This document shows positions 31,031 through 59,459 of a stretch of DNA of 64,000 bases, piece after piece. Every line of letters begins with the position of its first letter. Position 1 is the first letter of the stretch. The translations under genes and the position numbers were made by a program. This DNA comes from Cyanophora paradoxa CCMP329 (lineage: Eukaryota; Plantae; Glaucophyta): contig QPMI01000557.1 in assembly GCA_004431415.1 (NCBI GenBank), positions 24,313 through 88,312 on the forward strand, read 5' to 3'. The notes beneath the pieces are model-generated. The model saw nothing but the letters and a program-made list of their open reading frames with translations. It had not been told where the DNA came from and did no database searches.

Positions 31031-31725
31031 ATGGACAGGAACAATCTGAGAGCTGAAATTCGGAGTCTAGCGCAGGAGCTACACAATCTAAGGTACATTA
31101 ACGGAACATATTTGAACACACTGATGCGACTAGCAGACCCACAGAGGGGAACCCACACACAAAATCTTCGAGCTAATCTGTCAACATTGCTTAGACTTAG
31201 ACAGACGAACCGGCCGCAGCGCCCTTTGTACCAGTCATGGATAACAAGTCATTTTGAGAACGAACGCAATGCTCGAATTGAAGCCACGCGAGAGTTTGAT
31301 GAAATTGTAGAGTATGGGATCTCGAATTTATTTCGCGAGACAGGTCGAGGCGATACCGTGTTAAATTATACTCATTATGCATATCCGGGGTTGTTATTTA
31401 CCAAGGATGTTTTGGATATTGAACCGACTCCAATGCCAGAGCGGGTTAAAGAGATCACGATTGAGTTTCTGAGAGAGCTGCGAATTCCAGAGAAAATAGG
31501 ATCAAGCGTTCTAATTCGGTTTCATTTCGATAACTTTCGCATGTATCGCACTCAACTAGCAACAATCGAAGAGGGCACAATGCAGTCGCTCTTGTCAAAT
31601 CTGGCTGAAAAGATGGAACAATGGATGCTAGCGCAGCAGCCATATGAAGACAACGACCTTTGGCCAGTAGTGAAAATAGAGGTGCTCATTGCAGAGAACG
31701 CTGCAGGCGCACTTGGAAACGTACC
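31031..31725 (+). CDS. polB: N-terminal part of viral protein-primed DNA polymerase B (possible terminal-protein region), interrupted by the LINE
   Basis: ORF reads ...AAGALGNVP into the TSD and joins in frame with 38196 (KLPFNGK...) when the LINE and one TSD copy are removed. Confidence 0.88.
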
Positions 31726-32285
31726 CCCCGGAACCTGGCGAGGCACGTAGCGGCACAGCGGCAGCAGCGCGGAGCGTGGTACGCACCTTTTCTTAGCCTC
31801 TGCGTGATTCTGGAACTCTCCTGCCTTCGGGCGCAAACTCTCTGCCGTATGGCGCAAACTCGTGTTACCGTCCCTGTTGCCCTGCGTGCGCACTCACGTG
31901 TGCATTGCCTTGAACTCCGTTCGGCAGCCGAAGCTGAAAAGTACGAAGCCCTGGCCACCGGTGTCCGCACGGCGTCATCCGTCAGTTGTGCTTTCGCCTC
32001 TAACTCCTGTCAAGCATGTTCTCGTTACATTCTACGTCATACATACGCTCAGCTCAGCTCTCGCGTGCGGGCATCGACTTGGGCAGTTACCGTTACGTGG
32101 GTTGTGCGAAGTGACTCTGCTGACGGCCGATTAACTGCGCACTCTGTTATTTTTACAGCTGATGCCAAGCCAAGCTCTCGGGTTTTCGGCTCTCATCTCG
32201 TAACCCTTATACCTCTTTTCGTCGCTGGGACTGCCCCCCCGCCCAACATTCATCGCCTTCGTGCACCGCCGTGGCCTGATTAAAT

Positions 32286-34217: not shown

Positions 34218-35812
34218 CCAATCCAATCTTGCAACTCATCATTCCTGAAGATCAGTTTGGATTTGTACAAGGTCGGGATGTTCATAAAAACATCTTTGCA
34301 GTGCTGGCCACGTATACACGCATCCGCTACGCCAATTATGATTGTGTTATTGGGTTCGACTCGGATCTCAAGTCTGCCTACGATCTGTTGCTCTGGGTTA
34401 TTATGGCGCTCGTTCTCCATGTTCAACAGTGGCCCTGGCTTATCCGACGGATGCATCACTGCTTGTACAACCCTAGAGCTCCCCTCCGTGCACGTGTATT
34501 TGCGAATGGGCTCTTCTCTTCTGTTTTCTCACGTCTTGTGGGCACCATTCAAGGTGGTCCCTGGAGCCCAGTTTCTTTCATTCTCTCGATCAGCCCTCTA
34601 CGTTCTCTCTTGCTTTCGCTCACTGATATACCCCGCCCTGTTGGCACCCCCCTTGTCCAGTTTGCTGACGATATTTATCAACTGTTCCTGCTCCGCGCCC
34701 AGGGGCTATCTCTGCGTGACTCCCTCTTGGCTATCCATGCACGTTTTGGCTCTTTTAAACCTCTCTCTGGTCAGCATTTATCTATGGAGAAATCTCTTGC
34801 AATCGTCCTCAGGGAACCTGCTCCCTCATCTTTGGATCTTGATCCTGCTGATCCCCTGCCTTTCCCTGTTCTTCGCGCCTCTGAGCTCGACCCCGCCTGC
34901 CATAAGCAGCTGGGTTTCCCGCATCAGCTCCTTCTTGATCGTGAGCATCATCAATCATGGAACATGATTCAGTATAAAGCGACCTTCTTTACGGAGACAG
35001 CTGTTGATTTCCAGTCCTCCCTTCTTGGACGGGGTCGCATAGCCTATGCCTTCTGTCAGGGCGTATTGAGCTTCTATATTCGGGCAGTTCCAGCACCCCC
35101 TCTTATTCTCCGGGCTATCTCAAAATCCCTACAGACCTTCGTCTGGAAGCGTTCTTCGAATTCTGATGCGTTCATCTTACCCCATCAGGGCATGACCACT
35201 GCTTCGTGTCGGCCTGTATCTCTCGGTGGTCTCGGAGCACCCTCCCCTGAACACTTCCAGCTGGCCTTTGCCGCAAACTCTTTGGAATCGTGGCTTGCTT
35301 CCCCGGCAGCTCTTCCTGGTCGAGAAATTATTGAGGCTTTCACGGAGAATGGTGGTTTCGGGCTCTGGCTTCCTTTTCTCAACAGGACTGATCGCCTGGT
35401 GAAACCACTGTGGCCTCCGCCTGCTGACCCGTTCTTTGCCATCTTCGAAGCTTGGCGGACTATTTTCGATGTCAAGAAGCCCTGCTGCGCTTGGGATTTC
35501 CTGCGTATGCCGATCATGCACCCCTGGTATAAGAAAGACACGTACTATGAGCGTGACTTCACATTTTCGCTGCTTTTCCGTCTCGGCTTCCGTTTCAACT
35601 ATCAAATTTGGGATTTCTCTGGAGAACATACCTCTATGTCGAGCCCTCCTATCCCGAGCAACTGCGCGACCAGCTGCATGCGCTCAATAATCGACTTGCG
35701 CAAGAGGTTTGGCGTTGTGGTAAAACTGCAGACTGGAAACACGAACCTGGAGGTCTCGCTATCGGCCCTTTCTCGAAACTTGCTGCTGAGCGCGTCTCGC
35801 TCCAGGGAGTAG
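34205..35812 (+). CDS. LINE ORF2 part 2: reverse transcriptase core (-1 frame relative to part 1)
   Basis: QFGFVQGR, DLKSAYD, GTIQGGPWSP, QFADD, EKS, GGLG. Confidence 0.93.
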   Translation: MVTLANPILQLIIPEDQFGFVQGRDVHKNIFAVLATYTRIRYANYDCVIGFDSDLKSAYDLLLWVIMALVLHVQQWPWLIRRMHHCLYNPRAPLRARVFANGLFSSVFSRLVGTIQGGPWSPVSFILSISPLRSLLLSLTDIPRPVGTPLVQFADDIYQLFLLRAQGLSLRDSLLAIHARFGSFKPLSGQHLSMEKSLAIVLREPAPSSLDLDPADPLPFPVLRASELDPACHKQLGFPHQLLLDREHHQSWNMIQYKATFFTETAVDFQSSLLGRGRIAYAFCQGVLSFYIRAVPAPPLILRAISKSLQTFVWKRSSNSDAFILPHQGMTTASCRPVSLGGLGAPSPEHFQLAFAANSLESWLASPAALPGREIIEAFTENGGFGLWLPFLNRTDRLVKPLWPPPADPFFAIFEAWRTIFDVKKPCCAWDFLRMPIMHPWYKKDTYYERDFTFSLLFRLGFRFNYQIWDFSGEHTSMSSPPIPSNCATSCMRSIIDLRKRFGVVVKLQTGNTNLEVSLSALSRNLLLSASRSRE

Positions 35813-36861
35813 CTCTCTGTCGCGTTCGCCTTCTTCCTGACACACAGCTCGCTTTCCATGAGATTGACGTGCCCTGCAATGTTTCGATTGACAGTCCCGT
35901 TGCCCTCCCCGATGTGCTTGCGATCCGGCCCGCGGCCCGTGCGATCGACTTCATTCCCGTGCCTGCGCATGCGCTTAGCCTTGTTAAGAACGCTTGCAAG
36001 TTGTCCTCCATGCCCGCACTCGTCCGGTTCCTCATGAAGTCGTTGCAGCTTTCCGACCTTGCACTCCGTCCGCTGCCACCGTCGTCTTCCCGTACGTTTG
36101 CGTTCTACTCTGACCGCGAGAACATCAGCGATCGCTCAAAGGAAGAGCTGCGCCTCTCTAAGTCGGTTGCGTACAAGCTGCCTGCTGCCCCGTCGCGTTT
36201 CACGGTTCACGACGTGTACAAGTACCTCTCCTCCCACGCTTTCATGGCGCCGACGACCGCTGAGACTAAGTGGCGTGCTGATCTCTCTCCTAAGTTCCTC
36301 TGGCCGCCAGGCTACGATGCTCGCACCGATCGCTTCCCCTGGTTCAATACGGTTATCCCCGACCTGCGCTACGCTCTCACGCAGCGCGTCCTTGACGGCT
36401 ACTTTGCTCTGCGCTACAACACCCTCCGCACATCGTCCCGCATGGCTGCTATGGCTGCGCGTGATCTTCAGCGTCCCGCTTCGGCGAATTTGCTTGACAG
36501 TGAGCTTCTCTCTTCGCTATGTCCGGTCTGCCACCGGTACTGCAACGCACTGCACGTCTTTGCTCTTTGCCCCGTAGTGCAGCAGTTTTGGTCGCTTATC
36601 TTCCATGCCTGCAGCTCCAGCCGATGCCCATTCCTTCTGCACGATTCGTTGCCTGGCTGCTCACTGGCTCGGTCCGTTTCTCTGATACTTGGATGTTTTT
36701 GCAGAACTGGGAGTGGCAGGTTGTTCGGATTCTTGGTCTGCACGTCATTTTCCGCTCGTATTCTCTGGCCTATCGTACAGGTCGCTCTGAAGCTGCTGCT
36801 ACGTTTGCGATGGACCCTGACATACAGCTGCCCCTTACGCCTTCCTCCAAAACCGGTTTGA
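35608..36861 (+). CDS. LINE ORF2 part 3: zinc-binding (zf-RVT-like) region
   Basis: FTVHDVYKYL...KW...W and CPVCHRYCNALHVFALCPVVQQFW, typical of L1-clade ORF2 C-termini. Confidence 0.8.
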   Translation: MGFLWRTYLYVEPSYPEQLRDQLHALNNRLAQEVWRCGKTADWKHEPGGLAIGPFSKLAAERVSLQGVALCRVRLLPDTQLAFHEIDVPCNVSIDSPVALPDVLAIRPAARAIDFIPVPAHALSLVKNACKLSSMPALVRFLMKSLQLSDLALRPLPPSSSRTFAFYSDRENISDRSKEELRLSKSVAYKLPAAPSRFTVHDVYKYLSSHAFMAPTTAETKWRADLSPKFLWPPGYDARTDRFPWFNTVIPDLRYALTQRVLDGYFALRYNTLRTSSRMAAMAARDLQRPASANLLDSELLSSLCPVCHRYCNALHVFALCPVVQQFWSLIFHACSSSRCPFLLHDSLPGCSLARSVSLILGCFCRTGSGRLFGFLVCTSFSARILWPIVQVALKLLLRLRWTLTYSCPLRLPPKPV

Positions 36862-37919
36862 AGACGGCCACTCTGATGTCTGCCCTGTTTCGCGAGCTCG
36901 ACGATTTTATGGACATGCTTCCTCGCCGTTTACCTCGTTTCAAAGCTACTTACGTCCGTGGGGACTTCCGTTTCATCTCTACAGCTGACCCATCTCACTC
37001 TTCGTTTTGTTCTAACCTCTTGGACGCGGCTCGTGCTTATGACCATACCCTAGCCTCTTTTGAGCACTGCGAGCATATCACTCAGCCTGCCCCTAGCCCC
37101 GATTTAGCTCCTAGCTCCCTTGTTGCTCAGTTTGCCTATGCCAGTGCACGGCCTGTTCTATTGCAGCGGCTCGAAAAAGAGGATCTTGAAGGCTATGAAT
37201 CCTCCCCTGACACTGGATCAGACTCCTCAGAGCTTTCCGACCTGGGCCCTGATGAACCTGATGATTCTTCTACAAGCTCCTCTTCGGATGACGACGACCC
37301 TCCTGAGGCACCGGACCCTGCTCCTGCTCCTGACCCTCTACTTCCTCCGTCTCCTTCGCCCTCTCACACTCCCCCTCACCCCCCGCCGGACTTTGACACT
37401 GAGGACGAGCCGCCTCTTCGCCGTCGCCGTGTCGATGCTTTGGACCCTCCTGCGCCAGCTCCTGGCGTTCTCGATGATGATGCTGATGATCCCAGCTCGC
37501 CTCCGCTCTCTCCTCAAGTTATTATTGACCTCCTTGATCCCGAACTTGAAGCTTTATTTCTTTCTTCCCCTGAAATTGCTGCTGATATTACTGCGGATGC
37601 TCCCAATGTTGGGGGCCATTCGTCGTCTCTTCCTTCTTCCTCTGTTCCTATGGACACTGATCCTGTCTTGGCTCCTGATTTCAACCTGAAGCGCCGTCGA
37701 CCCTCTACCCCTGCTCCTCCTTGCCTCTCGGATGCCTATGGTTACCCAGACGGTACTATTGACCCATCTTTTCTTCCTTCCGTTAAACGTTTGCATCTTT
37801 CCTCTCCTGCTGACCTTTCAGTTCTCAGTGATGATTCGGGTTCTCCTGTGGTGCTCATTGACTATGATGCTGAAGCTGATGCCATGGACCTTCAATTTCT
37901 CTCCTCGACTGGGGTTTAA
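36519..37919 (+). CDS. LINE ORF2 part 4: acidic, Pro/Ser-rich C-terminal extension
   Basis: Long open frame in -1 relative to part 3; D/S/P-rich, with basic patches LRRRR and KRRRP. Confidence 0.6.
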   Translation: MSGLPPVLQRTARLCSLPRSAAVLVAYLPCLQLQPMPIPSARFVAWLLTGSVRFSDTWMFLQNWEWQVVRILGLHVIFRSYSLAYRTGRSEAAATFAMDPDIQLPLTPSSKTGLKTATLMSALFRELDDFMDMLPRRLPRFKATYVRGDFRFISTADPSHSSFCSNLLDAARAYDHTLASFEHCEHITQPAPSPDLAPSSLVAQFAYASARPVLLQRLEKEDLEGYESSPDTGSDSSELSDLGPDEPDDSSTSSSSDDDDPPEAPDPAPAPDPLLPPSPSPSHTPPHPPPDFDTEDEPPLRRRRVDALDPPAPAPGVLDDDADDPSSPPLSPQVIIDLLDPELEALFLSSPEIAADITADAPNVGGHSSSLPSSSVPMDTDPVLAPDFNLKRRRPSTPAPPCLSDAYGYPDGTIDPSFLPSVKRLHLSSPADLSVLSDDSGSPVVLIDYDAEADAMDLQFLSSTGV

Positions 37920-38195
37920 AGCTCTAAACAGGATCGGGAATACCCCAGGCCGGCATTAGGAAGAGGCCCGCATTGGGATTTCGCCGATTGTTTTCCAGGT
38001 TTGCGTGTATGAGCGCCGGACCGCCGGGGCATACATGGTGAACTGTATAGGCGCCCGTCTGCGCCGCCACTACCCTTGTCTGGTTGGTTCACTGTCGATT
38101 GTGCTTCGGGCCTTCGGGTCCTTCGCCTTTCGTCAAAACCGCACAACCGGCTTGGGCGTGTCTTATACATACTCTTCTTCTTCTGGAAACGTACC

Positions 38196-44542: not shown

Positions 44543-45931
44543 TTAGAGGTTCACCTTACGAAGACCCGCAGCATCAACAATTAGTACAGTGTGAAGGAGA
44601 GCTCGAACCTGGACGTAAATCTTGTTGTTTGCATCGTATGCAGCAGGGTTCATGATATTCAGGAAGCAGCTGCTGGAGTTCGTCAGATCTACGAAACCAG
44701 TTTGAGCAGCATTTCGAATCGATTTATCCCCACTAATGCAAAATGGCAATCCAGTCAGCACGTACCTATTCAAAGGTGCATCTAGATTGGAGCACTTGAA
44801 GACATCAGCGATGAGTTCGGCACCTTGCAGGAGAGGAACGGGCTCATTTGAATAAAGTCTCTGGCCATTCAATTCGCAGGAAATAGTAATATCGCGAGCA
44901 TTAGCCTCGGTTTTGAGGACACTGTGTTTTCCATCAGTTTGGTTCATGTTTGGCTGCTTGCGAATGCTAACGAACAGGCCGTAGCAAAGTCCACTGATTT
45001 GAGACAGATTAATCCGGGTGGGCGCTCCCGCACCAGCATAAGTAATTGAATCAGCATCAACCCAGCCGACATCGGTAGCGGGAATTGCGATTCCAGACGT
45101 TTTGACTTTCTCAATCACCTGGGCAAAAGTGGCCTCATCAACGTTGATACAATGAGCAATAATCTTTGGATTAGAAAGCTCCGGATTGGCAGGGGTGACA
45201 CTGAGAACATTGGGAGTTATATTCTGGCCGATGTTTGCAGGGGAAGCAGCAGCGGCTCCAACACTACCAAGGCCATCTTCTTTAGTGGCATCACCGCCGA
45301 TGGCATATTCTGTTACAAACCTACCACCATAGCTGGTTTCAACAAAGCCCTGGGCACGATCACGGAACCAAACCTCGACAGACACCTCGCCAGAAAGAGC
45401 ACCAATTGGGAGCACAGAACCCTCCCAGGGACATGGGATTTTTACACTGAAAATACCTCCAGTGCGATTGCTCCCCTGAGGTGGCGTTCCATGGAGCCAG
45501 CCACCAGAGCGGTATTTCTTTTTGAGCTGTGCATCATCATTGAAAATCAGAGCGCTGTGAACAAGCCAGTCCTCGGGGACAATGTAGCTGTAGGAAGCAT
45601 ATTTGATTTCAATTCGCTTTACAAGAGCACCAACAGACCGCAGATAACCAGTGCGAACCAGGTCAGTGTCACCAGTAAAAGCGGTCAACTCGGGCAGGGT
45701 AAACTGGAGTTCGAGCCCCTGAAGGAAGTTGTATCTGGGAAGGAAGTAGGTGACTCGTTTACCGAAGCAGTCTCCATAGTCATTGCTTGGGTTGACAACA
45801 ACACGAACAGGCTTGGTTTGGCTCGTTAGACCCAACATAAGCTCATTGTTCATAAAGAAGTCCTTCGCTTCCTGCGGAGTTGTCAGGAGCTCTTTGAGGC
45901 CGAGCCGCTGCAAATTTTGAGTGACATCCAT
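44543..45931 (-). CDS. Major capsid protein (probable double jelly-roll)
   Basis: 462 aa, between ATPase and minor capsid gene; FGKRVTYFLPR...LELQFTLPEL, VKRIEIKY, LPIGAL..EVSVEVWF, GFVDLT resemble Polinton-like/NCLDV MCP motifs. Confidence 0.82.
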   Translation of the reverse strand: MDVTQNLQRLGLKELLTTPQEAKDFFMNNELMLGLTSQTKPVRVVVNPSNDYGDCFGKRVTYFLPRYNFLQGLELQFTLPELTAFTGDTDLVRTGYLRSVGALVKRIEIKYASYSYIVPEDWLVHSALIFNDDAQLKKKYRSGGWLHGTPPQGSNRTGGIFSVKIPCPWEGSVLPIGALSGEVSVEVWFRDRAQGFVETSYGGRFVTEYAIGGDATKEDGLGSVGAAAASPANIGQNITPNVLSVTPANPELSNPKIIAHCINVDEATFAQVIEKVKTSGIAIPATDVGWVDADSITYAGAGAPTRINLSQISGLCYGLFVSIRKQPNMNQTDGKHSVLKTEANARDITISCELNGQRLYSNEPVPLLQGAELIADVFKCSNLDAPLNRYVLTGLPFCISGDKSIRNAAQTGFVDLTNSSSCFLNIMNPAAYDANNKIYVQVRALLHTVLIVDAAGLRKVNL

Positions 45932-45976: not shown

Positions 45977-46933
45977 TCAGTTTGACGAATTGATCCAAGG
46001 ATATGTCTTCGATCTTTTCTGTAGCTGAAGTTTTGCAAGTTCGTAAACAACATCACCATTGGGTTCGTCAGGACCATAACGAATTTCGAGAATAAATGAC
46101 ACAGGAGCTCCATTTAAATCAGCGATTCGCTGCATAAAATCGTATATCTCAATAGTCACAGAGTACAGGTCCAGCTTTGAATAAACATACTTATACAAAG
46201 GAGTTGCTTCAGTTGAATCATAGTAGGCTGTTTCGCCTGGACGGAGGGCGCTGGGAATGCTGAGCTTTGAGAAAAAGCCAGGAATTGAAGTATTGGGCAT
46301 ACTGACAAGGTCACCAATTTCAGGAATGCGAAGTAGCACATGATCATCGGGAGTGACATCAGGCTCATAAGCGCCTGCTATATATTCAGTATTTATAGAT
46401 AATGTCTTTGACCGAATCGGTAGAATTGATCGCAAGCCTAGCAGCTTTGCAGTTCGCTGAGCCCTAGCAACAGCCTGGTAGTTTCTGATTTCCCGCCCAC
46501 CCAGGTTCGGTGCCAACATCAGAGCAATAAAGAACTCGAAGCTAGCTGTGAACCCTATTGATTTAACTGCTGAATTATACGTGCACGTGATACCAGTCCC
46601 CGTCAACCTTTCGTTTATCTTTGTCACAAGCGAGGTGACGTCGTAATTTCCAGATGGAATTGTAATGTTATTCCAGGCTCCAAAACCTGGCTGAGGTGGG
46701 TCGGGTCCCTCATTTGCAGGATCATATTTGCACCAATATATATACGTGTCAAACACTAAATCCTCTGCTGGATCGAGTGCATCAACTGTGCTCATTGTGT
46801 TGGGGATCTCAGCTGATACCAAGCGCACAGCTTTTACATCCTGATAAACTTTAGGCAGTCTTACTTTAAATTTTGAGGTGGATGTCAGCTCATCCGCTTG
46901 GTGGCTTGCAATGCAGACGTAGTCCGTCGGCAT
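45977..46933 (-). CDS. Minor capsid (penton-like) protein 1
   Basis: FKVRLPKVYQDVKAVRLVSAEIPNT, ITIPSGNYDVTSL, LLGL, VTIEIYD...DLNGAPVSFILEI. Confidence 0.8.
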   Translation of the reverse strand: MPTDYVCIASHQADELTSTSKFKVRLPKVYQDVKAVRLVSAEIPNTMSTVDALDPAEDLVFDTYIYWCKYDPANEGPDPPQPGFGAWNNITIPSGNYDVTSLVTKINERLTGTGITCTYNSAVKSIGFTASFEFFIALMLAPNLGGREIRNYQAVARAQRTAKLLGLRSILPIRSKTLSINTEYIAGAYEPDVTPDDHVLLRIPEIGDLVSMPNTSIPGFFSKLSIPSALRPGETAYYDSTEATPLYKYVYSKLDLYSVTIEIYDFMQRIADLNGAPVSFILEIRYGPDEPNGDVVYELAKLQLQKRSKTYPWINSSN

Positions 46934-46960
46934 CTTTTTTATATCAGTTAGAGAATAAAA

Positions 46961-47878
46961 ATGGTCGAAGACAAGCATCGACGCTGCGTCAGGCTCAGCT
47001 TTGACAGTAGAGACAGAAGGCCAATCGATTCAGAGGCAAACTTTGTGCTAGAAATAAATGAACCTATAATCAATCCAGTTGCTGTTCGACTTACCCAGTG
47101 TGAGTTCGCAAACAGCCTTTACACGAGCATTAGAGATGAGTATCTTTCGATCACCTTCCCCAACATTTGGACGGAAAATCTGGCAGTTTTTGAGCCTGGT
47201 ATAATTACTACTGCAAATATGGGCGAAACAGATCTTTACAACTTTGGCCTATCGTTTAAGTTTGAACTGGGGGGAATCGTAATAGCATATTTCAAATTGT
47301 TTCGGGACCCAGAGACACTGAAGATGTCTGCCTATTGCAACCGTTCCTGCACAGTAACCTGCCAGTTCAAAGCTCTATCGAATCTGCTAGGGCTGAACCG
47401 AAATGAGCCCCTCCAGCTGTCTCCTATCGTGTTTGAAGGAGGACAAAGATCAGTAACTGCAGCTGAGCGATATCTCGAGGTTGCTGGCATTCCAGTAACA
47501 CCTTCACACCCTGAATATGGCGTGGATTTCACCGAAAGAATGCGGAGTGAGCCACTTGGTTATGCTGTCGAATTTCCAAAGATAATTGACATGAACAGCG
47601 ACCAGTATCTATTCCTAGTCTGTGAAGAGCTTCGACCATTTGCTTCAAAGCTTCGCCGTGGGGCCAAAACAATGTGCAACTACGGGCTTGCTCGAATTCA
47701 AATGAGTCAGGACGTTGGCAAATTCGTTTATATAAATCAGGATCATCAAAGCGAATGGATCCCCATCGAAGAGCGTCTTGTGCTGACTTCCTTGCGACTG
47801 CGCATTGTAGACAGAGATGGTGATGATGTATTACTGAATGGATTGCCATGGTCTGGGGAGCTCCAGTTCATCACTTAG
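46961..47878 (+). CDS. Minor capsid (penton-like) protein 2
   Basis: FDSRDR...NFVLEINEPIINPVAVRL...FANSLY, LLGL, YLFL, LARI, LTSLRLRIVDRDGDDVLLNGLPWSGELQF. Confidence 0.78.
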   Translation: MVEDKHRRCVRLSFDSRDRRPIDSEANFVLEINEPIINPVAVRLTQCEFANSLYTSIRDEYLSITFPNIWTENLAVFEPGIITTANMGETDLYNFGLSFKFELGGIVIAYFKLFRDPETLKMSAYCNRSCTVTCQFKALSNLLGLNRNEPLQLSPIVFEGGQRSVTAAERYLEVAGIPVTPSHPEYGVDFTERMRSEPLGYAVEFPKIIDMNSDQYLFLVCEELRPFASKLRRGAKTMCNYGLARIQMSQDVGKFVYINQDHQSEWIPIEERLVLTSLRLRIVDRDGDDVLLNGLPWSGELQFIT

Positions 47879-48145: not shown

Positions 48146-49846
48146 CTAGGTTTTCTGCAAGCTTACCGCCGATTTGGTCCTGACGGAATCAAAAAGGAGC
48201 TCGCAACCAGAAACACAACTTGGTATCAGCGAAGAGAGAATTACATTAAGAGGCGACTGGGAGGGCGTAATGGAGCACCATTTTGGGAGAAAGATAAATC
48301 TGGCAGAACTATTCCAACACGTCTTGGACTCTCTCTGATTTCCTGGGCATTCATGCCGCCGCCTAATTAATGTAACGTCCCGGAAATCAAGCCGGAATGC
48401 ATTCACATTTATAAATTCGTTTGTTATAATTTGCACATAGTTATATACCTGTGGGGTGAACAAATGCGAGTCACTATGCATTAGATCGAAGCCTGCCATT
48501 GTTGGGTTCGCAGCAAGCACATTTGCTAGGACCGTATTTTCAAAAAGCCTCCCATCTTGGACATATCCTAAGTTGGTCAGAATGCTGAAATTAAATAGGA
48601 CTCCGGCAGCAAATGCTGGCCCATACATAATGATTTGATGTAGCTCAAAAGGCTTGGGAAACTCGACTTTAATCCAGGGATTAGGTAAAGTGCCCCCTTG
48701 GAACCCTGTTGAGTTGGGTCGCACATGAGAAGGTGGGTGCAATTCCTCAAAGTCGTTGCTTGTAATGTTTGCATCTGGAATTATAAACCAGTTGACATCA
48801 AATGGCGGCTCAACTGTTAAAGAAGACGATATGATTAGTCTCTCATCGTTCAGTAGGTCATAGTTCGCCAGTAGAAAGCTGCAGAGTGCATTTATTTTAG
48901 CATTTATTTCGATTTGTTTCAGCCATAAATCTGTCGTGGAAATCAAATAAGAAATATTCGATGGGGAGGCATCGTCAAGCTTGCTCATGACTGCAGCTGG
49001 TAGCGGAACACTTAAACGCCAGTATCTTGTTAGATTCCTATCCGCATCAACTGGAAGCAGTTCCTGCATTTGAAAGTGCGATTCCAGCTCGCTACCAGCC
49101 ATTAGCATAGAAATGATTGGGCTGCCTGAGAGGGATAGGATCCAGCCCAGTGCGCCCCAGCCTGACGTCTCCGAATTCGAAAAGCCTGCAGTCAATTGCT
49201 CACTGGCTTGGACTTCACCACAGCTAATGCTCACAAGAACAATTGGATCTTCTGCATCGTAAATTTTACTGGCGTGGCTGAGTGCAGCAACTGAGGGATT
49301 ATTCAAACAGGCAATTGCCCCGTCAACAAGGTTTTTGTCCCCTAGAACCTTCGGTGGAAAGAATGTAGGCGCTGCAGAAGATGCTCTCACTGCATCACGA
49401 ATCAGCGTGCTTGAATATGGCCCATCCTTCGTAAAAACTACGGGCTGCATCCGAACTGTATCAAACGCTGTTATTAATACATCTTTTGTCGATTCTGCAA
49501 TTGTGTAGTCCTGGGCAACGTCTGTGAGCACCGACTCCAGAGGGTTTGCATCATAGCGGCTGCCTGAGAGCAAGCTTGTCAGTGATCTTGGATTTGCAAA
49601 TATTGTTGGCAGGTTCGTTTGATATAGACTCAAGATATCACCTGCAGAATATCGGTAAGCAAGAACAGAGCCTGGAGCTGATGGGATCGCCAATCCGGCC
49701 GCTATTATTGCCCCTGTTGAGGTGCCTGCAAAGAAATCAAACAGCTGTGGTATTGCTTTCCCAGTAATCGCCTCAATCCGTTGTAGAATTCGGGCTATGA
49801 CTATTCCACGAGCACCTCCACCTGATAGTGAGAGAATGACCTTCAT
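48146..49846 (-). CDS. Patatin-like phospholipase with C-terminal extension
   Basis: LSLSGGGARG, FAGTSTG (Ser nucleophile), ASSAAPTFFP, LVDGA..NNP (Asp). ATG at 49846 after an AT-rich spacer; the C-terminal end is less certain. Confidence 0.92.
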   Translation of the reverse strand: MKVILSLSGGGARGIVIARILQRIEAITGKAIPQLFDFFAGTSTGAIIAAGLAIPSAPGSVLAYRYSAGDILSLYQTNLPTIFANPRSLTSLLSGSRYDANPLESVLTDVAQDYTIAESTKDVLITAFDTVRMQPVVFTKDGPYSSTLIRDAVRASSAAPTFFPPKVLGDKNLVDGAIACLNNPSVAALSHASKIYDAEDPIVLVSISCGEVQASEQLTAGFSNSETSGWGALGWILSLSGSPIISMLMAGSELESHFQMQELLPVDADRNLTRYWRLSVPLPAAVMSKLDDASPSNISYLISTTDLWLKQIEINAKINALCSFLLANYDLLNDERLIISSSLTVEPPFDVNWFIIPDANITSNDFEELHPPSHVRPNSTGFQGGTLPNPWIKVEFPKPFELHQIIMYGPAFAAGVLFNFSILTNLGYVQDGRLFENTVLANVLAANPTMAGFDLMHSDSHLFTPQVYNYVQIITNEFINVNAFRLDFRDVTLIRRRHECPGNQRESKTCWNSSARFIFLPKWCSITPSQSPLNVILSSLIPSCVSGCELLFDSVRTKSAVSLQKT

Positions 49847-49870: not shown

Positions 49871-52800
49871 ATGTCCTACATCTTGAAGAAGCCAGTGCCA
49901 CTTCGTAGATCTCCAGATTTCGTTGATGATCGACTCATAAATATTCGCGTATTTGGAAGCATCTTGGCAGACTTCAATGCTGATCGTGACATCCACAGGA
50001 CCGAGTTTAGTCGACCAGCTGCATTAATTCTGCGGAACTCCCACGTTGGTGCCCCAGATATTGCACAGAGATTCTGTCTTGGTCCCACTGAGAACTTTGT
50101 TGCTGAAATTATTGGGTCCAGGGCGTTGCCACGACACCTGCGAATTGCCTCCTCAGGCACAGTCTCCAAGTATGATTCTGGTAGATTGATATTTAGGCTC
50201 CAAAATGATAGAGGGGTCCATACATCAGCTCTACGTCTAATTGATGAATCAAATGATGTCGCAAACAAAACTGCGGCTCAAATCACTGGGCGAATTCTCC
50301 TTGGCGAAGATGCTGCAATATCAGTGCTTGCATCACAAATTCAGCCGTTCCCCTGGGACTTACTTTTTACAGCTGCACGAGAAGCAAATCTTCTTTTCGG
50401 GTTTGATGTAAATCAAATCGATACCGAGCCAGCCACCAGGTTCGATATTCCTGGATGCACCTTCGGCTCTATCTTGATTGAGGCTGACAGGCACCTGCTC
50501 CCGGCATTGCATGATAGATATGACCTAGGGCTTCGCACCAGGCAGTGGAGAAATATTCATGGAACTAATATTTATCAGGATGGTAAGAAGGTTAGCACCG
50601 AAGAGCAGGTTATCAACATTTTCAACTACTACTTCGGACCTATTGTCCCTATACCACCTCTTCCAGGGTTACCAAAGCCGCCAATCCCGGATGGACCTGG
50701 TCGAGAGCGAGTTGCTGATGAGACAGTTCCTTTCGGTCAACATATTGTCAGTTGGGAGCAAGTTCGCAATAAACCTATCTTCGAACCGAAAAAACAAATA
50801 GATGAACAGTATTTACCTCCTGAAATCGATATATTAGAGCTTGATGATTACCAATTTGTCCAGATGAGGAAGAGTTTTTACCTGACGGTTTCGACCCGCA
50901 AGAGTATGAGTATGATCAATACGACCCAAATGAGGAAGAGTATTTACCCGATGGTTTAGATCCACAAGAGTATGAGTATGAACAGAATTATGAACCCCAT
51001 GAGGAATATTTAGCAGATGGTCTCGAACCACCAGTTGTGGATTATGAGCAACCTTATGAACCCCATGAGGAGTTTTTACCAGATGGTTTACAACCGGAGC
51101 TTTTTGAGTTCTTTCCAGATTGGGAACAGATCAACAACAAACCAGCGAGATATCCACCAGAGGATCACAACCATGATTGGGATGAGATCTTGGGTAAACC
51201 TGAGAAATATCCACCTGAAGATCACAGGCATGATTGGGGCGATATCGATGGAATTCCACCTGAGTTTCCGCCAGAAGACCATTTACATATTTGGAGCGAA
51301 ATACGAGAGCAGCCCACTTTTGCATCAGCAGGAAATGTATTATTAGGAGATATTAACAATGGTGTGAGTCTCTACCAAAATATAAACACACCAGAAAGAT
51401 TACAATTAAACGATTATTATGTGAATCGTCAGGGAATCGATGCAGGCACCACAATGGACGGTGAATTGTATATTAGACCACCCACAAGGGATGTAATATT
51501 ACCACTTGGTGGTGGAATTGAAATTAAAAATACAAAACCAGGAATCTACTTAACAAACTACTACCCCGATGATGTCCCGATGACAGCAGGATTTATTTCT
51601 CTACCATCTGATCCAGCAAACTATGATAACAAAGATGCAACAATACAAATTAATGTGACTAATGTAAGCGATTTAGACGGATCAAGACCAAAATTAATAT
51701 TTAGCCGTGAGCAACTCGCAGCAGAAACACTTTTAGGAGATCGCGATGATTATAAACAATGTGAGGTAGCATGGATTAAAACAAATTATAATGGTGGAGT
51801 TCCTGAGGGTCTTTTAGAAATCAATCAGAGAGCCTCAGCGAAAAACATTCATAACGAAAATATTTCAAGAGTCGTAACAGAAGATTATTTTAGATGGGAT
51901 AATATCCCTGACGCACCCGAAAAATTCCCACCCTCAGACCATGAACATGTTAAAGCAGATATTACGGATTTTGCACATACTCATGTCAAAGCCGATATTA
52001 CGGATTTTGACCATACTCACACAAAAGCGCAAATCACAGATTTTGCCCACACTCACACAAAAGATCAAATAACAGACTTTGCCCATACTCATCTAAAAGC
52101 AGATATTACAGACTTTGCACATGCTCACACAAAAGCAGATATCACAGATTTTGCACACACCCACCTTAAAGCAGATATTACAGACTTTGCACATACTCAC
52201 CTAAAAGCAGATATTACAGATTTTGCACATACCCACACAAAAGTGGATATCTCAGATTTTGCACATAGGCACAATTGGGACGAAATAGACGAACAGCCAG
52301 TTTTTGCACAATTGAATGCAATCGGAAACGTTTTTAATGGAGTCACTCTTTACCAATCAAGTAATACACCTGAAAGATTGTATTTGAATGATCATTATGT
52401 TAGTCTCAATGGTTCATTTACAGGTGAAACAGGCACACCGATGGTGGGAACTCTTGCAGTAAGATTACCCAGGGATCCAATCGTAAATGGAGTTTATGAT
52501 GGTGATTTTAATGTAGGAGTAAATGATACTTTCCCCAGTATCTATGTTACGAATTATCACCCAGGTGAAACAGGACAAGTAGCCGATTTTTCAGCAGCTA
52601 TTCAAATAAACGTTACAGATCAAAGCGCATATGATGGAGCAAGACCTAAGATAGTTTTCACAAGGGAGAAAGTTGTAAACTACCTTCCTGTTGTGGGACA
52701 ACCCACAGACGATCACGGAAAATGTGAGATGGCATGGATTAAAACGACAACAGGTGGCGCCTTAGAAGTCAATCAGAGAATGGCGGCGAAAAACTTACAC

Positions 52801-55344
52801 AATACAACCCTTTCCGGTGTTGTTACAGATGATTACCTTACCAATAAAGGATATCTTACGACCGCGGATTTAAGCAGTTATGCAACCGATGCAGAATTAG
52901 CGGCGGCACTTGCGAATTATCTACCTCTCACAGGTGGAACTGTAACAGGAACTGTGAATGCTACCACTTTACAAATTGGTGGAACCACAATACCAAAAGG
53001 TTACGATTTTGACCAATTAGATGTGGTTTCGACAGATAGAAGCGCAAATAATTGGACTGTCAATTGGAGTCCGAGAACCGGACAAACAGGATGTTATACA
53101 ACACCACAAAATGATGAAGATTGTAGCGCTTGTTTTATGCGTTGGACAGTTCCAGAAGGTATGAAATCGTTTTACATCCAGCACATGCCGTGGTATAATT
53201 GTAGATACTTTGATATTTACGGGCAAACTGTGAATGGATATCAACATTTCTTAAAACGTATAAATGCATATCAGGAAATCCAGGCAGTCAATCAAGATGG
53301 AACACACAATACTGTTTTGTTTGCCTCAATCAACTGTGAGTTTTACACAAAGATATATATTCAAGGTCGAAAAGGTCGCATTCATCTTACGGGGGTTTTC
53401 GGTTGGAGTAGACAGAGAGCAACCGACAATGAATTGGGCATGATCTCTTGGGATAATATATTTAGCAAACCGTCATTTTATTCAGCCGCAGACCTCCCAG
53501 CAACAGCAAAATGGACAGTGGACAATTGGTTAAAATCAACAGACAATATAGAAAGATTTTGGTTTGGAAATGGTAATACGACATATATTCGTGGTTATGG
53601 AAACTCTGATAATGTTTGTGTGGAGTTTCGCAATGGCTCCGATTTAGCATTATTAAAATCATATAATAATGGTAATTTATGGGTAGGAGGAACTTTAAAT
53701 GTTACTACAAGTGTAAGCGCACCATCAATTACAGGAACTACTATAAATGCAACAACCATTGATGTTGCAACATTAAAAAGAAATGGTTATGACGTTCCGA
53801 AATTCTACGCTTTTGATGACACAGTAGCAGGTGGTGCTTATCATTCATCGGGCGGAACTTGGTCGGTTGGGTATGGAACAGCTTGGGATCCAGGATATAA
53901 TTATGGTAGTCATGTGTATAATAGTGAAAGTCAAGATGAAGTGTCTACAACAACTTGGATTCAGTATACAATTCCCACCGCATTAGTGAATGGAACAGCA
54001 TACCTTACACATTTACCATGGTTTAATTGCCGTTACTTTGAGATTTGGGGAGTCCGTAGTAATGGGGCAATAGTATTTATTACAAGAGTAAATAACTATC
54101 AGCCACATGATGGTAACGCAGACGGTCACCACAACGGGTTAAACAATGTCCCAATTTTCCTTGCCGGTCGATTTACTCACCTCCGTATTTATCCCAGAGT
54201 TGGAAGAGTTCACATTATGGGAATTGGTTTTACGCATGATCGAGCTAATAGTAGTTCATATGGTGGTCACACCGGTTTTATTCATTGGAATAATGTTTAC
54301 AGTAAACCTACTATTCCTACATCCTATCTGTCGTTAACAGATGTCACAAATTCAATTGGAAACATTACCAGTTTTGATGTGGTTTCAGGATGGAATAGTG
54401 CAACTGTTTATTTTATAGGATCTTGGGGAACAGGTTGGAAACCTACAACAGACAATCCAGTAGAAGGATTTTATAGCCACATCGAAAATGATACCACAAG
54501 TGGTGACTACATGCAAATGGAAGTTCCCAGTGGAATGCGAACCTGTCATGTCCAGTATTTCTGTTCGACGAATTGTAGATATTTTGATATTGGTGGATAT
54601 CGAAACAATAGATGGAATCACATAATGAGAGTAAATACGTATCAAAATATTTCAAATGTAGCCGATTCAAATTGGCATGATGGGTTAACATGGACATCCT
54701 TCTTTTGTGCGAATTTCTCACATATTCGATTTATTGCAAGAAAGGGAAGATGTCACGTTGGGATGATTGGATGGACAAAAGAAGTAGGAAGAACCTCACC
54801 AGCAAATGGTATGATCAGTTGGGATAACATTTTTAGTAAACCGCTGTCGGCAACTTGGGCTACCGGAGATTGGATAAACTCCGGTGATAATTACCCGAGA
54901 ATGTATTTTGGGACAGGTTCTACTACGTATATTAGAGGACATGCAACAACAGTAGTAGAGTTTCGAAATGCATCCGATGTTCACGTAGCATTTATAAATG
55001 ACGATGGTTACATGTGGGTTAGAAACTATCTCGGACAAGGTAGCGATAGAAGATACAAAACCGATATTAAAAAGATAACCGGCGCTCTTTCAGCAATTGA
55101 AAAATTAGAAGGAGTGAGTTTTAAACGAATCGGAAGTGAAAAAGACGGAACAAGATTAGGTTTAATTGCGCAAGATGTGCAACAGGTAATACCAGAAGTT
55201 GTATGTGCGAGCAATAAAGATGGTTACTTAGCTCTCGAATACACGGGTTTAATTCCAGTTCTCATAGAAGCCGTTAAAGAATTATCTAAGAAATGCAAAG
55301 GTCTACAAGATCAAATAGATCAATGGCGCAGCCAGGCTGCTTAA
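49871..55344 (+). CDS. Giant modular fibre/spike protein (~1,820 aa) with HxH repeats and C-terminal peptidase S74 chaperone; split by a -1 frameshift near 50860
   Basis: ORFs 49871-50959 and 51037-55344 join if gtccagat were gtcccagat, since the acidic EEYLPDG repeats start at the shift. Nine 12-aa HxHxKADITDFA units; C-terminal SDRRYKTDI...GLIAQDV...LIPVLIEAVKEL. Confidence 0.85.
51940..52272 (+). repeat. Coding 36-bp tandem repeat x9 (HxHxKADITDFA)
   Basis: Read directly in the ORF translation. Confidence 0.92.
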
Positions 55345-55740: not shown

Positions 55741-56595
55741 ATGGGCGAATATAATCGGGTTCAGTTACCTATCTATTCACTTGGATCCCCTGCAAATCAT
55801 TTTCGCCAACACGAAGTCAATGATGAGGTTCGCGGTCTGGAATCCACTGAACGACCTAATTCGAATGGTAACTCTTTTGACAAAAACTCAATGATTCGAG
55901 TAAAAGAACTTCGAGCTGACAAGAACTCAGGTGTGGTTAAAACAACTCGACTACTCGTAAGCAATGCTAACTTCTTCCAACCAATAAATGGAGGTCCTGA
56001 TGCTTATGGTGTTGATCTGAAAGCCCTTGACTTCGATAAGAATTCTGCTGCTGTTACTGTGAGATCAGGAGGAGCTTTTATTGGCGGTGGCTGCAGAATT
56101 TCAGGTCAACTCTCTTCTTCGATTGCATACAATGATGTCCCGGATTCCCTTGAACAAAATGTTGAAAATCCACAACGAATTCGGTTCTATACACCAGTTG
56201 CACAGCAACCTTTTCTTCACTTCTATGTTGCATCATCTGTCTCTCTTGAAAATTCAGAGTTGGTTTCCATTACAGGAACTGATCGTGTGAGAATGAATAT
56301 TCCTCTTCCCACAGCAATGCTTTCGATGTGCAGAGCAAACAACAATCAACCAGGTCACAATTACCTATTCTTTGTTCAAGCATCAAACCATTTTGGTAGA
56401 GGATATTGTGTTTATAACAATTTGACATTTACTTATGATTTGTTTGTCACTGAGGTAGGAGTTTATAATACTATGATAATTGGACTGAGAACAGATATAG
56501 CTGCTGTTTCAGCACTTCGTGGTGTGAATATTGCTGATATTTTTACAACCGGATTTTACCAGGAGCCAGATGTTATTGACGATCCTACTCCGTAA
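55741..56595 (+). CDS. Viral hypothetical protein, paralogue A
   Basis: 284 aa; shares GLESTE, ELRxDKNxGVVKTTxLLVxNANF and GGAxIG with the next ORF. Confidence 0.8.
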   Translation: MGEYNRVQLPIYSLGSPANHFRQHEVNDEVRGLESTERPNSNGNSFDKNSMIRVKELRADKNSGVVKTTRLLVSNANFFQPINGGPDAYGVDLKALDFDKNSAAVTVRSGGAFIGGGCRISGQLSSSIAYNDVPDSLEQNVENPQRIRFYTPVAQQPFLHFYVASSVSLENSELVSITGTDRVRMNIPLPTAMLSMCRANNNQPGHNYLFFVQASNHFGRGYCVYNNLTFTYDLFVTEVGVYNTMIIGLRTDIAAVSALRGVNIADIFTTGFYQEPDVIDDPTP

Positions 56596-56618: not shown

Positions 56619-57443
56619 ATGGCTGAAATTGAACGCATCCTTACAGCTCAGCTCTCACTCGCCGCCCCAGCTACCCACGTTTTACAACACGCTACTTTTG
56701 ATGATGTGGAAGGTCTTGAATCAACAGAAGTTCAGCCGACATTAAACACCTTCGGATCTACACATAAACTTCGATTGCAGGAACTCAGATGTGATAAAAA
56801 TAATGGTGTGGTCAAAACTACAAAGTTGCTAGTTACGAATGCTAATTTTAGCGCAAATTATGGCAATCCAGATAGTTACGGCGATCCTATTTCGACTTAC
56901 TCTTTTGAATCTCGTTCTGGAGCTATAAACTGTCGAAATGGCGGCGCATATATTGGTGATGGTCTTCGTGTTGGGGGAACAATCGGAGCTCCTCTCTTCG
57001 TGAACGACACGCCAAACCCGATCGACAATCTGACGCGGATTCGCACCTATGTCCCCGGTATGAATGCCCCCTATATAATCAAGATATTCCCCATTGTTGT
57101 TAATGAGCAGACATCAGTAGTTGATTCTCTGGTTGAAATTGGTGATCATTATAAGGTAGTAGTCGATATTCCACCAGATATTTATGCACTCTGCCAGGTT
57201 GAGGGTGGTACTCCGAATATTTCAGTTGTGATCACTCCATATGATAATTTCGGGATCGCGTATCATGGTGTAAATTTCGGCCTTGAAGACTACCAGTTCT
57301 TGGTGAGAGCAACCAGGTTTGGTATCTACAAATGCATCCTTTATGCTGAAAGAACCGATGCTATTGCTAAACAGAACACATATGCAGAATATGTTGGTAC
57401 AAACAGGTATTTTCCTATATTCGGCAGCGATACGGCTCCATAG
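56619..57443 (+). CDS. Viral hypothetical protein, paralogue B
   Basis: 274 aa; paralogous to 55741-56595. Confidence 0.8.
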   Translation: MAEIERILTAQLSLAAPATHVLQHATFDDVEGLESTEVQPTLNTFGSTHKLRLQELRCDKNNGVVKTTKLLVTNANFSANYGNPDSYGDPISTYSFESRSGAINCRNGGAYIGDGLRVGGTIGAPLFVNDTPNPIDNLTRIRTYVPGMNAPYIIKIFPIVVNEQTSVVDSLVEIGDHYKVVVDIPPDIYALCQVEGGTPNISVVITPYDNFGIAYHGVNFGLEDYQFLVRATRFGIYKCILYAERTDAIAKQNTYAEYVGTNRYFPIFGSDTAP

Positions 57444-57795: not shown

Positions 57796-58355
57796 GAGGC
57801 CGCACCAGAGCGCTCTTGGGACACGAAGTGCTTCAATGTACTCATCATTATCGCCTAGATAGAGCTAAACGCTTTTCCTCTGGTTGCTTCAATGTTCTCA
57901 TCATTTCGCCTAAAATTAACCTAAACGTGCTTCCTCTGTTAGCTTCATCGTACTCATCTATATCGCCTAAAATTAACCTAAACGTGCTTCCTCTGTTAGC
58001 TTCGATGTACACTTCATTATCGCCTAAAATTAACCTAAACGTGTTTCCTCTGATAGCTTCATTGTACACATTAATATCGTCTAGACTATTCTGCCACGTT
58101 GCTCTGCAGACCGCGCTCATGGGGGCAGCGCTCCTCTTCGCCTATTCTTGTTGTCTCCTCTGCCTTGTATAGTCGTCAGATATTGCTAGGCTTCGACCTA
58201 GGGAATCGGATAGTAGACGTAGCTGGATCGGTGGGGTAGACGTATATGGTGAAATAACTAATGAAACGCTGGAGGTATACACTTGAAACGCATGGAATCG
58301 GGGGCTATGGAGCGAAGCGGAATTGCCCGGGTGTGAGGTCCATGCGTATACAACA
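57796..58355 (-). repeat. Right terminal inverted repeat of the virus (560 bp)
   Basis: Reverse complement of 30136-30695. Confidence 0.96.
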
Positions 58356-59459
58356 AACAATGCCTCCGACCTGGCTTGAGAATTCGACATTTTCGCTGGA
58401 GAATTCGATATTTTCGCGCGCCCCCGGCCCTTGCCCCCACCAGCTGTGCGTGCAGCCCGCAGCGCCGGCCCCCGACCCCCGCCGCTGCCCGGCACGCTCT
58501 GGGCCCCGGCACGCCTCGCGCGCCCCCCGGCCCCCGCCTCCCCACCCGGCGTCCCCCTCACCCAGCTGCACATGCAGCCCGCTGGCGCCAGGTACCGGTG
58601 CAGGTGCTCACGCAGCCTGGCAGCGGGCCTCGAGGGAGTGGTGGGGCACAGGAGGGGCCGGGATGGGCCCGCGGAACCGTGCCCGTTCTCCTTCTCCCCA
58701 GGGCGGGCCCCGCGCCTGCGTCGGAGCACTGTGGAAGAACATGTATTATACGTGGATTCAGAATCTATAAGATCAGCGGGGGTGCCCGGGCCCTAGGGGG
58801 ATGGCAATGGCGAGACCAGGGCACCATGTGCCATCCACATCCGGGATCCGTTTCTTTTCGAACTGATATCTTTAGATGGAAATTAGGTTTATTAAATCAA
58901 AGTACATCATAAGAACGACAATCAAGAGGGCTTTCAGAATATATAATAAGGTCGGCGCTCGCAAGTTAACCTAACCCGTAAAGTTGAAAAGGCTGCCAAA
59001 ACGTCTGACGAGCTCTCAAACCTGACATCTGATCATGATCATGAGTCTCCCCCAACGTTTTAACTCTGTCATCATGAAAACTGACCTCGAAGGGTGACTA
59101 CATTACGACTCAACAACAGCCTTTATATTATACATAAAGACTTAAAAAAGCCTCATATATCACCCATTCACTGGGCATAGCTTGTTGGAACGAGATTTCG
59201 GAAATAATTGCGGCCGTGCCCTGACGTGGCCCACCATACCCCACCGCCGTGCCCCAACGTGCCCCACCGTGCTCGCTGCCGTGCCCCGACGTGTCCCCTA
59301 CGTAGACACATTACTCTTGAACATCGCCACACGCATGTGAGCCGCGCCGCCGCCTGCCAAGCCGCCTGCGCCGCCCGGCGAGACGCGCGCCGCCCGCCAC
59401 GCCCTCGCCCCGCCCGGCGAGCCGCCGCACCGCCGCCCGCCGAGCCCCCTTCCTGTGCA

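Follow-up and report, generated by a model that had tools for sequence, protein, structure and literature searches.

How Polinton-like viruses (PLVs) find cells has so far been inferred rather than shown, and a gene of ~1,820 codons in Cyanophora paradoxa CCMP329 raises the question of whether one such element encodes its own attachment device. We analyzed a 64,000-nucleotide stretch of contig QPMI01000557.1 (here called the window), for which an original prediction had described a phage-style, self-chaperoning fibre. On the basis of the results below, we consider it likely that this gene, which belongs to an integrated Polinton-like element, codes for a homotrimeric fibre by which the virion attaches.

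The element that carries the gene is endogenous and integrated, with Polinton-like anatomy, and has a pair of terminal inverted repeats (TIRs):

30135 to 30695, no strand assigned: left TIR, 561 nt, 100% complementary to the right arm
57796 to 58356, no strand assigned: right TIR, partner of the left arm

The element measures 28,222 nt as found and 21,752 nt (21.8 kb; within the Polinton-like range of 14 to 40 kb) without a nested retroelement of 6,470 nt (~6.5 kb). It carries Pfam matches to pPolB (DNA_pol_B_2; E value, 3e-59), an integrase (rve_3; 4.5e-9), an A32-type packaging ATPase (Pox_A32; 2e-9), and a patatin family. The polymerase gene is interrupted by the retroelement, and this copy may therefore never make particles unaided. 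The ORF adjoining the ATPase gene (44543 to 45931; 462 amino acids [aa]) is a capsid candidate with one EukProt homologue (P0126; 64%) and no sequence match in Pfam, PHROG, or PDB; viral contigs yielded no full-length relative of it either. No clear 6-bp repeat was seen at the TIR ends, where a target site duplication of 5 to 6 bp is expected; such duplications are absent from many rve-type PLVs. Pfam returned no protease family in 20 scanned ORFs, among which a maturation cysteine protease (i.e., a virophage trait) was sought and a diverged one could escape. Two short ORFs beside the fibre gene (55741 to 56595 and 56619 to 57443) are paralogues (34% identity; E value, 3e-43).

The fibre gene appears in the window as two ORFs (49871 to 50959 and 51037 to 55344):

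49871 to 55344, + strand: whole fibre gene, ~1,820 codons
50858 to 50859, + strand: one-base frame break of the window; one base more in contigs of public runs

The extra base occurs in all depth in seven of the eight public runs (X1, X3, X11, X4, X12, X16, and X19); in X2, just a fraction of the depth carries it. It restores the frame, in favor of the single fibre gene originally predicted. In the window, the first frame meets a stop at 50957 to 50959, while the second ORF has only a GTG opening, without an ATG near its start, in a frame that is open from 50848. Two features described below, the acidic repeat and a W linker, continue across the break. Another one-base gap of the window, at 48378, is not present in the contigs of any of four runs, which points to assembly error. 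Thus, the frame break is most likely an assembly error of the window; a programmed frameshift was dropped as an explanation because the contigs are already in frame. The gene was predicted to take a quarter of the viral genome, which holds when the 6,470-nt retroelement is left out (5,474 of 21,752 nt; 25.2%) but not for the 28,222-nt element as found (19.4%). No full-length relative of the protein was found in viral or metagenome contigs, and the 7,991 scored candidates yielded one partial match only.

Five module-scale joints were listed within the gene at 85% likeness (54832 to 53483, 53432 to 54502, 54221 to 55035, 51638 to 52751, and 52290 to 51308) and were not listed at 94% likeness in four other runs. 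Since in two cases the joined positions correspond to each other in sister modules, the joints may represent diverged copies placed on the wrong repeat, and we treat them as leads. The summed contig depth varies along the gene and cannot rank its parts.

All of the modules of the original prediction were found in the claimed order. The C-terminal end contains the following features:

53440 to 53685, + strand: linker and module C1, predicted trimer core
54811 to 55020, + strand: linker and module C2, 46% identity to C1
55042 to 55326, + strand: Peptidase_S74 intramolecular chaperone; Pfam, PHROG, and PDB matches; Ser1336 and a Lys five residues on

The predicted S74 chaperone is well supported: aa 1336 to 1389 match PF13884 (E value, 2.6e-16; 60.1 bits versus a curated cutoff of 22), and the Ser/Lys pair is kept (SDRRYK; aa 1336 to 1341). 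The 25 PHROG rows listed for the protein are mostly tail or fibre families, and among PDB sequences it matches one tail collar fibre and one subunit of a long tail fibre, as expected for the phage-type fibre modules that had been proposed. Only the His repeats and the C-S74 end show this likeness to phage records. The two W...FGxGxTTYIRG...VEFRN domains correspond to C1 and C2, the latter being covered by PHROG matches to phage tail fibres, with start points at aa 1236 to 1305.

Trimer prediction was run on the B1-C1 fragment (52990 to 53703; aa 652 to 889), that is, on 238 of ~1,820 residues, and gave a score of 0.65 versus 0.00 for the best of three controls. Contact agreement between the runs is 70% or more (pLDDT, 62 or more), with confident contacts limited to the linker and the TTYIRG module (residues 149 to 238 of the fragment). 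The mark used, calibrated on two copies rather than three, was reached by 21 of 30 solved one-chain pairs and 0 of 23 single chains from microbes. For eukaryotes, the corresponding counts were 17 of 29 and 0 of 30; only one of seven proteins without an older solved relative reached it. Because module C resembles phage fibres, the pass may come from the memory of the model. The trimeric fibre fold of the original prediction is thereby predicted as a shaft for this fragment only.

The N-terminal half is built from repeats and a duplicated domain, as follows:

49871 to 50847, + strand: N-terminal region; no Pfam match; one WxxIxxxP-type linker at aa 295
50869 to 51087, + strand: four acidic 22-aa repeats, EE[YF]L[PA]DG, with a 66-nt period
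51112 to 51312, + strand: three WxxIxxxP and PPEDHxH repeats of the phage tail-fibre shaft type; PHROG and PDB matches
51319 to 51888, + strand: domain A copy 1 (A1), ~190 aa; no homologue found
51928 to 52272, + strand: nine 12-aa (36-nt) units with 10 HxH; candidate metal-stitched shaft
52300 to 52836, + strand: domain A copy 2 (A2), 42% identity to copy 1

From its position, we infer that the N-terminal region is the capsid-anchoring end. The four acidic repeats and the PPEDHxH repeats were both as predicted; the former start at 50869, 50935, 51001, and 51067, and the three copies of the latter start at 51154, 51211, and 51268. Contigs of all four of four runs include one with an additional 66-nt acidic unit. 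The PPEDHxH repeats match PHROG tail proteins (phrog_9574, E value of 7.8e-7; phrog_5231, E value of 1.7e-9) and tail collar fibre gp4 in PDB (9d93; whole-sequence E value, 1.6e-4). Ten WxxIxxxP-type linkers are distributed over both ORFs.

A domain duplicated on both sides of nine HxH repeats was likewise recovered: A1 and A2 (aa 82 to 284 and 410 to 600 of the 51037 ORF; E value, 1e-50) flank the nine units, and the trimmed pair scores 137 bits versus at most 23.5 in 60 shuffles. No homologue of domain A was found among 1,213 candidates of 364 to 2,000 aa, which is weak evidence, and it has no Pfam match. In Atlas, domain A gave scores of up to 0.86 and ~100 shared features, some of them with phage fibre families (i.e., leads). 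The second ORF contains 13 HxH, where 2,000 shuffles averaged 2.1 and never exceeded 9, and 10 of the 13 follow a strict 12-residue period. The Pfam PTR family (PF12789) falls on this stretch with an E value of 6.6e-6 and 26.5 bits, 0.5 bit below the cutoff of 27. A single-chain AlphaFold model of 51100 to 52960 reached a pLDDT of only 32.

The candidate for receptor recognition is domain B, which is present in three copies:

53038 to 53424, + strand: domain B1; predicted CBM/galactose-binding-like jelly roll (AlphaFold2 and fold searches)
53851 to 54249, + strand: domain B2, by sequence identity to the other B copies
54415 to 54792, + strand: domain B3, by sequence identity to the other B copies

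The copies share 32 to 39% identity (E values, 2e-22 to 6e-32), and B1 against B2 scores 95 bits versus at most 25.4 in 100 shuffles. Three domains of ~120 aa had been predicted; the number stands, but each is ~135 aa long, and the WxNxxSKP motif assigned to them is a WxxIxxxP-type linker outside B. The AlphaFold2 model of B1 (pLDDT, 86) is closest in Foldseek to CBM29 and CBM6 (E value, 7.7e-5; TM, ~0.5; identity, 9 to 13%). The VIA fold search placed 3nqh_A residues 325 to 460 first (Z, 12.8; rmsd, 2.0; 113 aligned) and reelin, Eph, MAM, and CBM35/CBM6 next (Z, ~10). B is therefore predicted to be a CBM/galactose-binding-like jelly roll (i.e., a beta-sandwich), in line with the lectin-like fold expected of the triplicated domain. 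Such a fold is by itself no proof that B binds glycans, since Eph ligand-binding, MAM, and reelin domains use it without sugar. B had no Pfam match at E values up to 10, to a named CBM family or otherwise, a profile search of PDB sequences returned only NECAP1 (E value, 0.005 over 41 positions), and Atlas gave a best score of 0.78 and no family. A 21-residue genome-contig match was not confirmed by the B profile.

Relatives of B form a family of 113 representatives at 50% identity, of which 17 carry S74, 29 carry a GXX run (at least 5), and 42 carry either. Pfam scans of 44 B-carrying representatives revealed collagen in 12, S74 in 7, ricin-B lectin in 2, and F5/8 and PTR in 1 each. Conserved columns of the family include several aromatic ones of a surface type (e.g., W19, W23, W65, and H103; exposure presumed). 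Because an unnamed domain is unsearchable by words, B cannot be called absent from print. For every B copy, identity to outside proteins (37 to 43%) is roughly on a par with identity to its sisters. From a quick tree of 121 B domains, we hand-picked 37 rows for a careful tree, in which B2 and B3 group together (94/85, unstarred) and B1 stands apart; the trees neither establish nor reject a single clade for B1 to B3 (p-AU, 0.48). Diversification by domain duplication, as originally proposed, thus fits A1/A2 (no closer outside relative of A was seen) and C1/C2, and the B copies point neither way.

If the protein is an attachment fibre, its N-terminal region would anchor it to the capsid, and the C-terminal S74 domain would start trimer folding and then cleave itself at Ser1336, both by analogy with phage fibres. 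By the same analogy, the HxH motifs of the three chains may meet on the axis, clamp metal ions, and stiffen the shaft. The models suggest that the linkers and C modules would wind as a three-chain shaft and that each of the three B domains would form a CBM-like jelly roll, which makes nine in a trimer. With three diverged versions of B, the fibre may then bind surface glycans, most likely host-cell ones, and would gain avidity and some breadth.

The fibre could instead be real with B directed at host-engulfed bacteria or at glycosylated fibrils on a helper giant virus, the small virus entering by hitchhiking. Five of the eight viral loci with B relatives are giant-virus contigs (named GVMAG), Sputnik is described as entering on its helper's fibres in a preprint (10.1101/2022.07.28.501842), and another report proposes that a virophage fibre binds cyanobacterial lipopolysaccharide, with entry by bacterivory (PMC12724248). 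We nevertheless rate this as clearly improbable: independent host attachment has been inferred for fibre-bearing PLVs (PMC12220804; PgVV preprint, 10.1101/2022.07.28.501842), and our searches found neither a helper virus nor phagotrophy of the host. A purely structural or protective fibre seems very doubtful. In that case, B would be a spacer or a protein-binding jelly roll, as the tie of Eph, MAM, and reelin domains with CBMs in the fold search would allow, and receptor binding would fall to the penton or to the two neighboring paralogous ORFs, which share a GGAxIGxG motif. This motif presumably belongs to viral fibre shafts. However, B is a mobile module that accompanies ricin-B, F5/8, and PAN domains, and its family keeps the candidate surface aromatic columns.

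That the two ORFs are separate genes, or that this copy is a frameshifted relic without a full-length fibre product, is extremely improbable. The first-frame stop and the interrupted polymerase would fit such a reading, rare variants can drop from contigs, and X2 has the extra base in part of its depth only. Against this stand the full-depth extra base in the other seven runs, the repeat and linker that span the break, the second ORF's missing ATG, and the gap at 48378, likewise a probable assembly error. An attachment fibre encoded by one long gene remains the preferred reading.

Domain B is a small, well-folding candidate binding domain. With its three diverged versions and more than 100 relatives, it opens the receptor question to testing on glycan arrays. 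Its family would also allow the annotation of many "hypothetical" giant-virus proteins. A tentative and rather unlikely extension is that Polinton-like viruses, giant viruses, and bacterial surface proteins exchange B as a still unnamed family of glycan-binding domains, and that the many integrated copies of the element both swap and renumber their fibre modules; a single host genome would then serve as a library of fibres that differ in target, its giant-virus enemy perhaps among these targets.

Phage-style S74 fibres on PLVs are already known, while the domain B family is so far without a name. S74-capped, modular, phage-like fibres are reported to be near-ubiquitous in PLVs (Bulzu et al. 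2025, PMC12220804), so finding a fibre of bacteriophage type in a eukaryotic virus is no longer the surprise that was implied. Like those fibres, the protein described here is large and modular, with a single C-terminal Peptidase_S74, repeated glycan-binding-type domains, and PTR repeats, and some elements in that study are also endogenous PLVs containing a nested retroelement. The architectures listed there include Laminin_G_3, collagen, avian adenovirus fibre, BppL_N, and chlorovirus repeats, whereas domains A and B here are Pfam-less; a near-cutoff PTR match and S74 occur in one chain here, and PTR and S74 are joined in none of the rows listed. PgVV virions contain a fibre-like protein (10.1101/2022.07.28.501842). 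This protein, the PgVV/Gezel-14T Ltf found in virions, is likewise the longest ORF of its PLV, with repeats and phage fibre likeness; compared by description, it differs in its T4 gp36-like repeats and in a main text without the words S74 or chaperone.

A literature search found no paper that combined a Polinton-like fibre, histidine, metal, and trimer, and one on the 9d93 collar fibre found nothing relevant. HxH recurs in phage fibres (the T4 gp37 tip, Alteromonas R22Y, and collar fibre gp4), and a WDxIxxxP-PPSxHxH unit of our protein aligns to 9d93. gp37 binds iron, as summarized in PMC11705849; the present protein differs in its thirteen HxH, ten of them strictly periodic, with a putative metal role. 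Domain B resembles the CBM6, CBM29, and CBM35 galactose-binding-like jelly rolls in predicted fold but differs in its ~10% identity and lack of a profile match. The C-terminal chaperone is shared with pb1, the L-shaped fibre of phage T5, and with S74 fibres related to it (PMC4690869; PDB 6f45), down to the Ser-Lys spacing (Ser1264/Lys1269 in pb1). The glycan site of pb1 has been proposed at its intertwined tip, whereas here separate jelly rolls are predicted to be strung along the shaft.

The fibre gene (49871 to 55344, + strand) lies inside an island of 38 to 58% GC, surrounded by host sequence that is mostly 60 to 83% GC and carries eukaryotic genes (WD40, DEAD helicase, VHS, and C2H2 fingers); the host is probably a microbial eukaryote with a gene-dense, GC-rich genome. 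The island boundaries are marked by two inverted repeats:

30135 to 30695: left inverted repeat (561 nt, perfect)
57796 to 58356: right inverted repeat (561 nt, perfect)

The genes encoded between them include pPolB, rve integrase, HNH-AP2, A32 ATPase, and patatin. Since these repeats and the pPolB/integrase/ATPase gene set correspond to the anatomy of a Polinton-like virus (PLV), the island, judged by that anatomy, is an endogenous PLV. No clear target duplication of the element was found at the inverted repeats, both of which contain internal 57-nt repeats; a 94-nt tandem repeat (29686 to 30136) adjoins the left one. A non-LTR retroelement (endonuclease plus RT; 6,470 nt), itself spread over several frames, is nested in the pPolB gene (31714 to 38195) and is flanked by a 12-nt target duplication (31714 to 31725 and 38184 to 38195); ORF 31031 to 31750 is the N-terminal part of the polymerase gene, stranded by this insertion. 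Excluding the retroelement, the fibre gene takes up 25.2% of the remaining 21,752 nt of the element, in agreement with the original prediction of a quarter of the viral genome. A candidate capsid ORF (44543 to 45931) had no match in family searches and one homologue (64%) in a eukaryotic proteome set. Four further ORFs had no family match:

45977 to 46978 (-): ORF of about 300 aa adjoining the capsid candidate
46961 to 47878 (+): ORF of about 300 aa adjoining the capsid candidate
55741 to 56595 (+): paralogue, 34% identical to the next
56619 to 57443 (+): second paralogue

The products of the first pair both have motifs suggestive of penton-type proteins. The paralogues have the N-terminal half in common, with a GGAxIGxG motif, and are possibly short fibres.

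The fibre protein is mostly as originally predicted but of a known kind. Every predicted module was found, with scores far beyond those of shuffled controls. At the N terminus, an unmatched region is followed by four acidic repeats of 22 aa and by three WxxIxxxP-PPEDHxH units. Next come A1, nine units of 12 aa that together hold 10 HxH, and A2; a short linker of helical appearance then leads to B1, C1, B2, B3, C2, and the S74 chaperone. The WxxIxxxP-type linker occurs 10 times in the gene, including one copy in the first ORF. Peptidase_S74 is clear, with Ser1336 and Lys1341 kept (numbering of the ORF starting at 51037); their spacing equals that of the T5 pb1 catalytic pair (PMC4690869). No counterpart of the pb1 sensor Arg/Asp could be mapped. 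The His repeats match PTR slightly below the Pfam cut-off and also match PHROG tail proteins and the solved phage collar fibre 9d93. According to a summary in PMC11705849, HxH motifs of T4 gp37 bind iron. Those of the fibre gene are candidate metal sites. The protein matched 1,571 phage records, always partially (none at 80% query coverage), and the 25 matches listed fall either on the His repeats or in the C-S74 end.

In the window, the frame changes immediately before the acidic repeats, giving two ORFs (49871 to 50959 and 51037 to 55344). Among 24 listed public sequencing runs, 20, all labelled organism A, contain 50% or more of the sampled words, and the window itself may derive from one of these; 8 of the 20 were compared. 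An extra base at 50858/50859 represented all of the depth in X1, X3, and X11 (85% likeness, two placements summed) and in X4, X12, X16, and X19 (94% likeness), and part of the depth in X2. A second one-base gap, at 48378 in the patatin gene, was likewise missing from 4/4 runs. These two sites make an assembly error the most probable cause of the frame break. A small share of the probability stays with a mutation confined to this element copy, since rare variants get dropped from contigs. Separate genes in error-free relatives, the outcome named beforehand as contradicting a single fibre gene, were not found in the run contigs. The run contigs fall into every likeness class (in X1, 638 at ≥99%, then 634, 742, and 452 at <90%); thus, the organism contains many diverged element copies.

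Diversification by domain duplication, as predicted, fits A1/A2 and C1/C2, which look like internal duplicates. For the B copies, the data point neither way: B1, B2, and B3 form long branches, outside proteins are about as close as sister copies, and a single clade is neither rejected (p-AU = 0.48) nor demonstrated. The number of repeats seems to vary among element copies, because a contig with an additional 66-nt acidic unit occurs in 4/4 runs at 94% and because all six HxH-region joints with computable spacing are multiples of 36 nt, a pattern that repeats placed out of register would also produce. Larger module joints disappeared under stricter contig placement.

Domain B has no family in Pfam or PHROG. 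Its AlphaFold2 model (46 sequences; pLDDT 86) is a beta-sandwich, for which Foldseek ranked CBM29 and CBM6 at the top. VIA-align placed a Bacteroides glycoside hydrolase domain first (Z = 12.8; rmsd 2.0; 113 aligned), followed by CBM35/CBM6 tied with Eph, MAM, and reelin domains (Z of about 10); viral fold matches include phage host-specificity and receptor-binding proteins. The predicted fold thus fits a lectin without proving one. A search with residues 640 to 1328 against 1.84 billion representatives returned 116 matches; 113 contain B, many being fragments, and of these 17 carry S74, 29 a collagen-like run, and 42 either. A 5,217-aa protein (P0002) contains 11 B copies, with a WxxVxNRP linker after every one, as well as HxH motifs and a signal-peptide-like start; S74 was looked for in it and not found. 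Judging by its N-terminal domain, this protein may be bacterial. Eight viral contigs (26 to 31% GC), five of them named giant-virus bins, carry one B each.

Three copies of residues 652 to 889 (B1, linker, and C1), modelled without an alignment of our own, scored 0.65 as a trimer (best control, 0.00), with contact agreement of at least 70% and pLDDT of at least 62. In its calibration, which used two copies, not three, the mark was reached by 21/30 proteins solved as pairs versus 0/23 single chains and, for eukaryotes, by 17/29 versus 0/30 (1/7 without an older solved relative). The confident contacts all lie within residues 149 to 238 (linker plus C1). B1 has none among the contacts named, a hint that the B domains may be separate lobes hanging off the shaft.

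At its C-terminal end, the product of the patatin gene (48146 to 49840, -) is extended by a stretch that resembles discoidin on visual inspection and has no Pfam match; patatin-discoidin fusions are described in some PLVs (PMC12220804). The same paper (Bulzu et al. 2025) describes S74 genes as ubiquitous among the PLVs of most groups of eukaryotes. Often S74 lies at the C terminus of modular proteins that reach 3.9 kaa and also contain Laminin_G_3, collagen, PTR, and further repeats; these are interpreted as host-attachment fibres, and nested retroelements are reported too. In other sources, PgVV virions contain a fibre-like protein (10.1101/2022.07.28.501842), a tail fibre gene is common to Tetraselmis PLVs (10.1101/2025.10.09.676808), giant-virus islands are enriched in S74, collagen, and F5/8 genes (PMC13620141), and a virophage fibre is reported to bind cyanobacterial LPS (PMC12724248). 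The module architecture found here is not among the published ones compared with it; the supplements of the two preprints may describe similar domains. To these known systems, the present analysis adds this architecture, an unnamed family of predicted CBM fold (B), now open to annotation, and the duplicated orphan domain A. It also shows that the runs do not share the window's ORF split.
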